Positions 24,828-63,618 of a stretch of DNA of 64,000 nt are shown here, one piece after another. The notes under the pieces are model-generated. The model worked only from the letters and a program-made list of their open reading frames with translations. It had not been told where the DNA came from and searched no databases. The position numbers and the translations under genes were made by a program. Numbering within the stretch: the stretch's first letter is position 1; each line of letters begins with the position of its first letter. This DNA is from Rhodothermales bacterium (GTDB taxonomy: Bacteria > Bacteroidota > Rhodothermia > Rhodothermales > JANQRZ01): NCBI GenBank assembly GCA_965215165.1, contig CBDCCX010000006.1:524181-588180 (forward strand), read 5' to 3'.

Positions 24828-24892
24828 CCGCTAGGGCACACCCGTTTGCCACGGGCATGTCCTCCCCCCCCCCTCTTCAGACACCAACTCCT

Positions 24893-59153: not shown

Positions 59154-60131
59154 ATGGCACGAAACAGCTATTACTACTACGACCACGAGGCCTGCGCCTT
59201 CGTCGAGGTCCAACCCCAGCGCCGCAAGCTCGTCTTCCAGTCGGCCCTCGTGCTCGGACTCGCCCTCGTCTTCGCCGGCGTCGGGATGTGGGCCGTCTAC
59301 GAGACCTCCTCGACCCCCAAGGAGGTCGCCCTCGTTCAGGAGAACCGCGCGCTCCAGCACCAGCTCGAGGCCAACGGCCAGCGCTTCACCGCGCTCTCGG
59401 ACCGCCTCGACGACCTCGCCGAGACCGACCGCGACCTCTACCGCACCATCTTCCAGGCCGACCCGATCCCCGACGAGGTCCGGCAGGTCGGCGTCGGCGG
59501 TGCGATGTCGGCGGCGTTCGACGGCTTCAGCGAGGACGCGGGTACGCTGCTCCGCGACAACGAGGCGACGCTCGACAAGCTCGAGCGCCAGGTGACGCTC
59601 CAGCGCACGAGCTACGACGAGCTGCTCACGCTCGCCTCGCAGCGCGCCGAGGCCATCCCGCAGATGCCGGCCATCCTCCCAACCTCCGGCCCGCTCACGA
59701 GCGGCTTCGGAATGCGCCGCCATCCCATCCACCGCGTGTTCAAGATGCACGCCGGGGTCGACTTCCTGGTCCCGGTCGGGACGCCGGTCTACGCCACCGG
59801 CGACGGCGTGGTCGCGTTCGCCGGCGTCAGCTCGGGCTACGGCCAGAACGTCCGCATCCGCCACCCGAAGGCGAAGCGGGCGACGCGGTACGCCCACCTC
59901 TCGCGCATCCCCGACGGGGTCCGCGCGGGCGTGCCCGTCGAGCGGGGGGACGTGATCGGGTTCAGCGGCAACACCGGCCTGTCGACGGCCCCGCACCTCC
60001 ACTACGAAATCCGACGCTTGGGCGACGACGAGCCGGTCAACCCGGTCTACTCGTTCGCCCCCGGCGTGCGGCCCTCGGAGTATCAGGAGCTGGTCCGCAT
60101 CGCCGAGAGCAGAACTACTCCGCTCGACTGA
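59154..60131 (+). CDS. M23 family metallopeptidase with N-terminal TM and coiled coil
   Basis: TSGFGMRRHPI, HAGVDF, YAHL, GLSTAPHLHYE. Confidence 0.95.
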   Translation: MARNSYYYYDHEACAFVEVQPQRRKLVFQSALVLGLALVFAGVGMWAVYETSSTPKEVALVQENRALQHQLEANGQRFTALSDRLDDLAETDRDLYRTIFQADPIPDEVRQVGVGGAMSAAFDGFSEDAGTLLRDNEATLDKLERQVTLQRTSYDELLTLASQRAEAIPQMPAILPTSGPLTSGFGMRRHPIHRVFKMHAGVDFLVPVGTPVYATGDGVVAFAGVSSGYGQNVRIRHPKAKRATRYAHLSRIPDGVRAGVPVERGDVIGFSGNTGLSTAPHLHYEIRRLGDDEPVNPVYSFAPGVRPSEYQELVRIAESRTTPLD

Positions 60132-60153
60132 GCGAGACGCCAGACAGAATTCG

Positions 60154-60195
60154 GCGGGGCGGGCGCATGGAGCGCTCGCCCCGCTCTCGCTTTCG
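60154..60195 (+). terminator. Intrinsic terminator-like hairpin
   Basis: GCGGGGCGGGCGC/GCGCTCGCCCCGC 13-bp stem followed by TCTCGCTTT. Confidence 0.6.
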
Positions 60196-60220: not shown

Positions 60221-60250
60221 TTGCACATTGATGACCGGTTGCCCTATCCT
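60221..60250 (+). promoter_or_regulatory. Putative promoter of the S8 gene
   Basis: TTGCAC, 18 bp, TATCCT; GGAGG at 60274-60278 precedes ATG 60284. Confidence 0.5.
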
Positions 60251-60283
60251 TGTACATACATCCGCTCAAACCGGGAGGTCGTC

Positions 60284-63200
60284 ATGTTTACGCACTACGC
60301 CACCGAACGCCGTCACAAAAATAAGGGGGGGGGGGCCAATCTTCCCGTGCCGCTGCCTCTCCTGGATCGTAGCGGTCGCGCTGCTAGCAATGGTGCCGAG
60401 CACAGCGCTGGGGCAAACGCTGACTCCCATCGACCTATCTGAAAATGCTGTAGCCGAAGCGCCGATCTTCGAGGACTCTCTGGGTAATCGGTACTCAACG
60501 CTCGTCCGGGTCAAGTTCGGTGAGTACGTTTTCGACGTGCCGCAGGGACAGAAGACGGCTCCGCTGGCAAGCATAAGAACGGGGTACGGAGGCGTCATGA
60601 GCTTCTTCAATCAGCTTGAGACAGACTACGGTCCGTTTGCGCTAGAGAAAATGGCTCCGAGCATCGTGTGGGGTGACACCCTCCGCGTGAACAAGCGTAC
60701 TGGAGCGACCGTCTCAATCTCCGACTATTCGCAACTCATCGAAGTCTGGTTCGATGCTCCCGTACCGCTCGATGAGGCAGTGGCCGAGTTTGAAGCGCTT
60801 CCCGAAGTGGACTATGCTGAGAGACCGCTAGTGATCTCCCATGCTGGCGGTACGTTTGGCTCTATCGGAGAGCCAGACGATCCAGAGTACACAAGCGGCA
60901 ATCAGTATAGTCTTCAGCTTATCGACGCTGCGAAAGCTTGGGGGCTCACACGCGGTGTGGGTATAGAACGTCCAGTAGGGATTGCTATCACAGATAGCTT
61001 CAGTTGCAATTTGTCCGGTGCTAATGGACGTCCTTTGCATCCAGACCTAAGGGATAAAATGGAGGTTCTAGACTGTTCCCTCCCCATGTTTGGAACTTCC
61101 CATCATGGACCTTCTGTGGCTGGCCTAGCCGGGGCAGAGACCGACAACGGCGTAGATGTAGCGAGTCTTGGGTGGGACACAAAGCTATACGGATTTGACG
61201 GCAGGGCTCAAGGGCTGATGAAGGTTTTTGAGGCAATAGCAGACCCGTCTAGCCCTGCCTACGAAAGCATCGATGTGGTCAACTGTAGCTGGACCATTGG
61301 CAAGGAGAACTATGAAAATGACCTAGGAACCCCGCGTCGTCTTATAAGGAGTCTGCTGAACGTTGGCATCGTCGTCGTGGCAGGTTCAGGAAATGGATTA
61401 CACTCAACTGGTGGTTGTCGGTCCTCTGAAATTCCTTGTGTGCGATACCCAGCGGCCTTCAACTATGACGATCTCGACGCTGGAGACGGTACCACATATG
61501 AAGGACAAGTCATCGCTGTCACCCTAACTGACGAGGACGACGAGTTTTTCGAGGGCGTGAACTACAGCCCCGGTACGAATCCCCTCTCTGAGCCTGACTC
61601 AGCGTACATCGATGTCGCAGCACCTGGTTATAACGTGAGAGTTTTGCGGTCAAGTTCGGATGGGAGCGGAGGGTGGAATCATGGGAGTGTAATTGGATCG
61701 GGGACCTCCTATGCCTCGCCTATAGTGGCAGCGCAGGCGGCGCTCGTGCTCTCACTCAATCCGACCCTCCGCGTCGATGAGGTTTACGAGGTTATCACCC
61801 GCTCAGCCCAGAAGGTCGATTCGCTCGAACACTCCGATCTCTTCTTCTACACCGACACCGAGACAGGTGAGAGTCTCGGCTGGAACCAGTTCACGGGCTA
61901 CGGTCGCATCAATGCTGTGGAAAGGCTTCGAGCTCTTCGGCGATGGCTCACGTTTCGATGGCGTCATGATCAAGGATGCCGAGGTCGGCCTCCGCGTGCG
62001 TGCCAAGTATATCAGCGTGCGCCGCAGTCAACTCACGGCCAACAGGGTCGGTGTGCTCACAGACTTCATCCCGGCGTGCACGGGCAACGTCTGCATCGAG
62101 GGAAGCTTGCGCTCATCGGTGTTCCTCGACAGCGTGCTCGTCGACAGCAGCACGCTCTACGGCCTCTACCTCCGCAACACCGACGCCGGTCTCGCCGCCT
62201 CGACGGTGCGCGCGAGCGGTCGGCACGGCGTCGTCTTCACGAACGCGACAGCGACGGCGTTCTACGACAACGTCATTGAGGGCAACGGACCGAGTGGGTC
62301 GAGCTACGACGGCCTCCGCATCGGGGCTAACGGGAGTGTCTACTCCGGCATCCGGGGCGATATCGTCGGACTGCCAGGGCACAACCGCTTCGCCTTCAAC
62401 GCCGACCATCAAGTGGTGTACCTCGATGGTGGTTACCTTTTTCTCGGGAGAGCCGGCGGCGGGCAGAACACGATCACCGAGGCCGGCACGGACTGCCATG
62501 TGTTCGTCGACTCAACGAACGAGCTCGACGCCGAAGACAACTTCTGGGGAACCACCTCGGCTCCGTCGCCGAGCTTCTTTTGCGGCGGCGGGAAGGTCGA
62601 TGCCGACCCCTTCTTGACTTCGGACCCGACGGGTGGCTCCGGTGGGGGCTACCGGCCAGGGCCGGGCAACACGCCACTGCTGGCAAACGCTCGCCCCGTG
62701 CAGACTGGAGTCGGGCAGCGTGAGGTCGGCGGCGGCTACACGCCGGAGGAACTCGCGGCCGAGGAGGAACTCGCGGCCGAGATCGCAGCGGTGCGGGCGC
62801 AGGTGGATGCTGATCCCGGAGCACCGGAGGCGGCTGGGTTAGTTCGGCGGTTGGGCCTGCTGCACCGGCTCGACGAGGAAAATGTGACGGGCGAACTAGG
62901 CGCAACGAGCGCGCTCCTCGAAATCCTTCGCCAGAGCCTCTCTGGCAGTGGAGGTCTCAATCCGGACTACCGGCGAACGGCCGAAGGAGCGCTCCTGGTC
63001 GAGGTAGAGTTCGCGCTCACGGCTGAATCGTATGATGTGGCAGAAGGATTGATCACGGCGTCGGGTGCGCTCGTCGAGGGCGACGAAGTGGCACGAACGC
63101 TCGCTATCAGCCACGTCGCGCTCGACGATGCACAAGCCGACTATGCCTCGGCGTTGAATCGGCTGGACGCACTCCTGGCTGAGGTCACGGATGCCGAGCT

Positions 63201-63618
63201 AGCCGAGGACCTAGCGTTCATGGCCGACGAGATCGCAGCGAAGGCTGGGATCGAAGCGGTTCAGGGCGAAGGTGGAGGCGCGGCAGGCGAAGGGAAAACA
63301 AGCGCCACGGCGAGCAAGACTGACGGCACAGCGCTCCCGACGGCGTTTGCGCTCCGACCGGCCTACCCCAACCCGACGGCGCGAGCGGCAACGGTGCCCT
63401 TCGACTTGCCGGAGGAAGCTGAGGTCCGGGTCGTGGTCTACGACTTGCTCGGGCGCGCAGTGGCGGTGTTGGCTGAGGGTCTTCACGAGGCGGGCCGTCA
63501 CGAGGCGGTCTTCGAGGGCAGGCGGATGAGTGCGGGGGTCTACGTCGTCCGGGCAGAGATCGCGCCGGTGGGTGGTGCGCTACGGGCCTTTACGCAGAAG
63601 CTCACGCTGCTCCGCTAA
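60284..63618 (+). pseudogene. S8 (subtilisin) peptidase + beta-helix + helical region + T9SS CTD, interrupted by two frameshifts
   Basis: Triad motifs AITDS, HHGPSVAG, GTSYASP and GSGN in the 60228 frame up to GYGRINA (61916); CTD-bearing part (AYPNP...YDLLGRAVAVL) is in the 61777 frame from W at 61918; ATG 60284 is out of frame across the G11 tract. Confidence 0.75.
60325..60335 (+). repeat. G11 homopolymer in the signal-peptide-coding region
   Basis: AATAA-G11-CCAATC; confirmed by translations of three overlapping ORFs in the track. Confidence 0.95.

Follow-up and report, generated by a model that had tools for sequence, protein, structure and literature searches.

The window analysed here, that is, the whole 64-kb stretch of DNA, has a G+C content of 70%, and its homopolymers do not exceed six bases except for a C10 run (24864-24873) and a G11 run (60325-60335). 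The G11 run lies near the beginning of a gene related to S8 peptidases, all features of which are on the + strand. A promoter-like region (60221-60250) consists of TTGCAC (60221-60226), an 18-nt spacer and TATCCT (60245-60250), and is followed by a Shine-Dalgarno sequence (GGAGG, 60274-60278) located 5 nt upstream of an ATG (60284-60286). The G11 run starts 41 nt downstream of this ATG, where it occupies codons 14-17 and encodes Gly-Gly-Gly in the n-region of a signal peptide. The rest of the signal peptide (PIFPCRCLSWIVAVALLAMVPSTALG, 60336-60413) is in the S8 frame, with a predicted cleavage site before the Gln encoded at 60414; the ALGQTLTPI motif at this site is conserved in homologs. It continues into an intact open frame for an N-terminal pro-region and a Peptidase_S8 domain (60414-61915, Pfam PF00082), which ends at a deletion junction (61915/61916). 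Beyond the junction, translation of the S8 frame gives a nonsense tail of ~120 aa (61916-62279), and an orphaned C-terminal part with a beta-helix, a linker and a T9SS type A sorting domain (~63364-63555) lies in frame 1 (61918-63618). Upstream of all these features, 3' of the stop codon of an M23 peptidase gene (59154-60131), we observed a G+C-rich inverted repeat (GGCGGGGCGGGCG...CGCTCGCCCCGC, window 60153-60186), which resembled a terminator with a weak T run and was not called by a consensus scan.

The S8 frame was called from a TTG at 60228 to 62279 and is one base out of register with the frame of ATG 60284. We rejected this TTG as the real start, as it sits between the aligned -35 and -10 boxes and homologs begin at the aligned ATG; the gene caller chose it because the frame happens to remain open upstream. 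In homologs, TTGCAC and TATCCT of 60221-60250 aligned with TTGACA-N17/18-TAnnnT, a GAGG-type ribosome-binding site and an ATG occurred at the aligned positions, and the aligned ATG was in frame with the mature protein in a gene of a related genome (G006:C7, with a G9 tract) and in one of two paralogs in the same genome (paralog B, with a G6 tract). Judged by this alignment, ATG 60284 is the true start codon. An earlier note on this DNA had assigned a promoter to this ATG and placed 60228 inside it. Position 60228 does lie between boxes aligned with those of homologs, but a strict sigma-70 consensus scan called no promoter at this copy, whose -35 box is degenerate.

Translated from ATG 60284, the sequence reads MFTHYATERRHKNKGGGANL... 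and terminates after 52 aa at a TGA (60440-60442), and both coordinates and translation agree with the claim of the earlier note that G11 puts this ATG out of frame. Its companion claim, that at G10 or G13 the ATG would read a clean signal peptide into the S8 frame, was borne out by in silico replacement, which gave MFTHYATERRHKNKGGG(G)PIFPCRCLSWIVAVALLAMVPSTALG followed by QTLTP.... This leader has a charged n-region, a hydrophobic core (Kyte-Doolittle values up to 2.76) and an A-L-G cleavage motif. The products predicted for G10 and G13 were 664 and 665 aa, respectively, and those for G9, G11 and G12 were 28-52 aa (28-29 aa for G9 and G12). The locus thus has the sequence features of an SSR contingency locus, i.e., a tract of at least ~8 nt in the 5' coding region whose change by one unit toggles the frame.

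A second lesion was found further downstream. Compared to every homolog, a net ~164 nt is missing at 61915/61916, which corresponds to ~55 linker codons and shifts the frame from 0 to 1 (junction ...ATCAATGC/TGTGGAAAGG...). Alignment of the DNA with the G004 homolog (L023) placed a 164-nt gap between ...ATCAATGC and TGTGGAAAGG..., and tblastn matches of paralogs and orthologs were split at the same position into HSPs in frames 3 and 1. Each homolog is a single protein of ~1100-1240 aa; this locus has two overlapping ORFs in different frames, one with the S8 domain (60228-62279) and one with the beta-helix and sorting domain (61777-63618). We also considered a homopolymer error as the source of this second frame break and rejected it: the longest run at the junction is 3, so the 164-nt gap represents a deletion and not a base-calling slip. 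The G10 product would be genuine protease sequence up to residue 544 (signal peptide, pro-region and S8 domain), would continue with 120 nonsense residues, and would lack the beta-helix and the T9SS sorting domain, such that even the ON length yields no full-length product from this copy. With its protease domain cut off in this way from the beta-helix and the sorting domain, this copy is a pseudogene even at G10. The data consequently do not support the claim that it is the tract which turns a T9SS subtilase OFF in this genome, since the deletion breaks the gene as well and restoring G10 gives a truncated product. For annotation, the lesson is that the TTG 60228 start is an artefact of the frame break and that the called 'gene' is a pseudogene in two pieces. 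The catalytic domain is intact and the orphaned C-terminal part is 68% identical to residues 578-1141 of the G004 homolog; therefore, the lesions of this copy are probably recent.

Family membership was evident from several domains. The S8 domain matched PF00082 with 77.7 bits (cut-off 21.8), and residues D220, H257 and S458 (numbering of the first sequence in the alignment) were invariant across the family; from their motif context (D-x-F, HG and GTS), they likely form the catalytic triad. The C-terminal part matched Pfam Beta_helix, and its terminal domain matched TIGR04183 (T9SS type A sorting) with 25 bits (cut-off 23), whereas the match to Pfam PF18962 (Por_Secre_tail, 23.3 bits) was under the cut-off of 27. 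The T9SS component searched for, SprA (TIGR04189, 1598.9 bits), was present in the genome as an intact frame of 2782 aa. In this gene, the start codon, S8 domain and sorting domain occur in three frames (2, 0 and 1), and since signal peptide, protease and sorting domain are not on one polypeptide, there is no functional T9SS cargo gene here.

By genome search, protein search and contig look-ups, we identified 13 members of the family defined by S8, beta-helix and T9SS sorting domains, all of them from uncultured Rhodothermales. A G run was present at the aligned position in nine family genes (this gene and eight others) from at least six assemblies, and its length varied from G6 to G11. Two genes were in frame, paralog B (G6) and G006:C7 (G9). 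The other seven were out of frame: this gene (G11, ON = G10 or G13), paralog A (G10), G006:C55 (G10) and G004:C171 (G11), each of these three with ON = G9 or G12, L110 (G8, ON = G9), and L112 and L113 (both G9, ON = G10 or G7). Thus, the relatives hold G6-G11 runs in mixed frame states, which answers favourably the check on tract length in related genomes that the earlier note had set. Considering only tracts of at least eight G and including this gene, one of eight was in frame and seven were out, a ratio which could arise from random states (P ~0.2 with 1/3 expected in frame) and which does not by itself speak positively for the use of ON states. Restoring the frame would take a shift of -1 in three of the seven genes and of +1 in the remaining four. 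Apart from this gene, all six out-of-frame genes had single open frames of 1079-1239 aa containing S8, Beta_helix and Por_Secre_tail, suggesting that their OFF states are recent or reversible. More distant members of the family (L024, L111, L114 and L115) had no tract and possessed ordinary in-frame signal peptides.

The G run was the only uninterrupted conserved block of the leader, in which mean column identity was 58%. Eight genes had an uninterrupted run of 8-11 G at one site; their proteins are now 45-60% identical, and their flanking leader sequences have also diverged. The tract-bearing genes were scattered over a clade whose terminal branches measure 0.2-0.5 changes per site. A conserved tract with varying length and mixed frame states is the mark that slipped-strand phase variation leaves in a comparison of relatives. 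The protein collection contained no homolog above 61% identity, an exact-flank search of JGI metagenome contigs gave no match, and a family-flank pattern gave only one match in metagenome contigs, which was unrelated and of low complexity. We also observed that the gene looks mosaic over 60414-63618 when compared with L021, L023 and L110. Its N-terminal half groups with G006:C7 and L110 (support 98/95), whereas G004:C171 is matched both by the C-terminal half (68% identity, compared with only 33% to G006:C7) and by the beta-propeller gene downstream. This pattern suggests recombination between family paralogs.

We further examined the occurrence of long G/C runs in the 3.67-Mb genome. There were 925 runs of 6 bases, 140 of 7, 29 of 8 and 4 of 9, a drop of ~5-6 fold per added base, from which ~1 run of at least 10 bases would be expected. 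Ten were present: five of 10 bases, one of 11, one of 12, two of 13 and one of 14. Two of these (C13) are one locus duplicated in a concatemerised contig (C4). Four of the ten runs are in T9SS cargo genes and one precedes a lipobox; the tract of paralog A (G10, C6:1172467) is at the gene start and out of frame. Related genomes of the same family contained many long tracts, for example ~25 in G007. Lost mismatch repair was considered as a source of tract instability and rejected: both MutS (MutS1) and MutL are intact, and the tracts are therefore not in a repair-deficient background.

Additional long tracts in this genome are described here individually. A C14 run (C6:1047553-1047566; L028, 554-567) lies between the ATG (MKTLYAPPPP...) and the signal-peptide core of a 1138-aa protein with a T9SS sorting domain; this gene is out of frame as assembled (ON = C12 or C15), and a TTGACT/TATAT promoter-like site and GGAGG are located upstream. 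A C10 run (C6:2086628-2086637; L029, 429-438) follows ATG-GCT-CAC and precedes the lipobox (LAVSLGAC) of a 407-aa lipoprotein. This gene is likewise out of frame in the assembly (ON = C11 or C8), and its protein also contains 11 consecutive glycines. Two other runs, both on the minus strand, are in frame: G12 (C6:199962-199973), which is in the middle of a gene for a beta-helix T9SS cargo protein, and G10 (C6:3034896-3034905), at residue 183 of an asparagine-synthase-like gene. A one-base slip would inactivate either gene. The C10 run of the window (24864-24873) is 20 nt upstream of an ATG (24894) whose gene begins MGLLDFLKDAGDDLFGGKKGNESD (BON/LysM-like by eye); its location in a 5' UTR or promoter suggests a possible effect of tract length on expression.

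On balance, we favour the interpretation that the G11 run represents a classical slipped-strand contingency tract which the S8/beta-helix/T9SS family has inherited and that this copy is a decaying pseudogene and not a working switch. In this uncultured Rhodothermales protease family, the tract follows the start codon and precedes the hydrophobic core of the signal peptide, so that one G more or less decides the frame of the ~1100-aa protein; gain or loss of one G at replication would bring the ATG in or out of frame with the whole protein. We infer that tract length changes at high frequency. In this genome, the tract is in the OFF register (ON = G10 or G13), and the gene also carries the out-of-frame deletion of ~164 nt at 61915/61916; the OFF state presumably preceded the deletion.

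Several other explanations have to be weighed against this one. A consensus error, in which the true tract is G10, the 5' end is in frame and nothing is off at the tract, is unlikely but deserves to be taken seriously, and the deletion would make the gene defective in this case too. The assembly has hallmarks of long reads, as it consists of only 6 contigs, one of 3.5 Mb, and includes a concatemerised small circle. Contig C4 (29487 bp) carries two copies of the C13 run at a distance of exactly 18404 bp, and the sequences flanking them are the same; C4 therefore represents ~1.6 copies of an 18.4-kb circular element. Contig C3 is 18411 bp long. Assembly concatemers of small circles are typical of long-read assemblers, and homopolymers of at least 10 bases are the hardest class to call, so a one-base miscall of an 11-mer is possible; in addition, all four N-terminal tracts of this genome are out of frame. 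A GC3-phase test found more frame changes at longer homopolymers. On inspection, however, those at 6-7-mers proved to be genuine boundaries between genes, where a new M-start follows closely on a G/C-rich ribosome-binding region, and we rejected general homopolymer indel errors in the assembly on this basis. The lack of frameshift errors at shorter homopolymers argues against a miscall, as do the two mid-gene tracts of this genome (G12 and G10), which are in frame. The same out-of-frame design was also found in G006:C55, G004:C171, L110, L112 and L113, i.e., in five independent assemblies from other populations, whose contig names suggest short-read assemblers. A miscalled G11 would alter the state of this allele and not the nature of the tract.

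It is also conceivable, with rather low probability, that the tract is a recoding site. The out-of-frame arrangement would then be normal, and RNA-polymerase stuttering or ribosomal slippage would provide some full-length protein and a constitutive low expression. The predominance of out-of-frame alleles among long tracts (7/8) and the long intact ORFs of the other six such genes are consistent with this idea, and an all-G run permits re-pairing of tRNA-Gly in either direction. However, programmed frameshift sites would not be expected to require different shifts among homologs, and the need for shifts in both directions fits random replication slippage better. Moreover, the in-frame fraction is not significantly below that expected for random states, and we found no convincing conserved structure downstream of the tract, where the consensus over 114 GC-rich columns was weak (-9.25 kcal/mol), giving no convincing stimulatory element. 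We give an equally small chance to a broader version, in which the out-of-frame tract would be the selected resting genotype, a slippage 'dimmer', in this lineage and perhaps widely in Bacteroidota T9SS cargo genes. If so, costly secreted proteases would be tuned by the minority of transcripts or ribosomes that slip, and there would be no heritable on/off switch. Plain gene decay, in which the G run is a neutral hot spot in a redundant multi-copy family and the two lesions here reflect no adaptive switching, is likewise improbable to our judgment. It would account for the two lesions and the degenerate -35 box of this copy, and it agrees with the presence of two more paralogs in the genome and with a G001 paralog split by a transposase-like ORF and a stop codon. 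Neutral decay is difficult to reconcile with runs of 8-11 G kept uninterrupted in eight genes while protein identity fell to 45-60% and the flanking leader diverged, with out-of-frame genes that are otherwise intact over more than 1000 codons, and with the concentration of long tracts in genes for secreted proteins. The G001 member, which belongs to a related genome (G001:C15:161000-165200; L025 and L036), is halved around the transposase-like ORF (DDE/IS5-like by eye) and contains an in-frame TAG; it is an independent decay of a paralog.

The contingency tract inherited by the family, with decay of this copy, is thus the explanation that we prefer. With respect to the proposal of the earlier note that the tract is a candidate for phase variation, the frame arithmetic, the site of the tract and the tracts of homologs support it for the family, but this particular copy is also broken by the deletion.

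Homopolymer phase variation is textbook biology in host-adapted pathogens, and N. gonorrhoeae pilC has a poly-G tract in its signal-peptide coding region. For prokaryotes in general, homopolymeric tracts are reportedly over-represented at the 5' end of genes (Orsi, Bowen and Wiedmann, 2010); there, as in our case, a genome-wide excess near gene starts is reported to be read as a mutational on/off device, although that work was statistical and covered many genomes. Poly-G/C contingency loci are present in Campylobacter jejuni, Neisseria and Helicobacter (PMC8355987, PMC5084427, PMC5953494). In these loci, too, genes for surface or secreted proteins have 8-14-nt G/C tracts in their 5' coding part, with several loci per genome and mixed frame states among relatives. 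However, these organisms are host-associated, and Campylobacter is without mismatch repair, whereas the present genome is environmental and has MutS and MutL. The closest analogue of the Rhodothermales protease tract appears to be NalP of Neisseria meningitidis, which is described, together with MspA, as a secreted protease of the subtilisin type that is phase-variable and has a homopolymeric tract inside its gene (PMC3723659). Like this family, NalP is an exported S8-type serine protease whose frame is set by an intragenic G/C homopolymer, and both ON and OFF alleles are found among NalP isolates as among the genes of this family. NalP differs in being a type V autotransporter of a host-adapted pathogen in which switching was measured; here, the protein is a T9SS cargo of environmental Rhodothermales and switching is inferred from sequence comparison. 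In addition, the tract described here is in the signal-peptide n-region, and this copy is also broken by a deletion.

A full-text literature search returned no study that connects slipped-strand phase variation with Rhodothermales or with T9SS cargo genes, and to our knowledge there are hardly any reports of homopolymer phase variation in free-living Bacteroidota and Rhodothermota or in T9SS cargo. The mechanism is known, and the taxon and the cargo class are new. The family has kept a tract whose length varies in the signal peptide of a secreted protease with several copies, and the genome has further tracts in other T9SS cargo genes. This pattern suggests that environmental Rhodothermales may bet-hedge on which secreted proteins are displayed, with phage, predators or public-goods costs as possible reasons.
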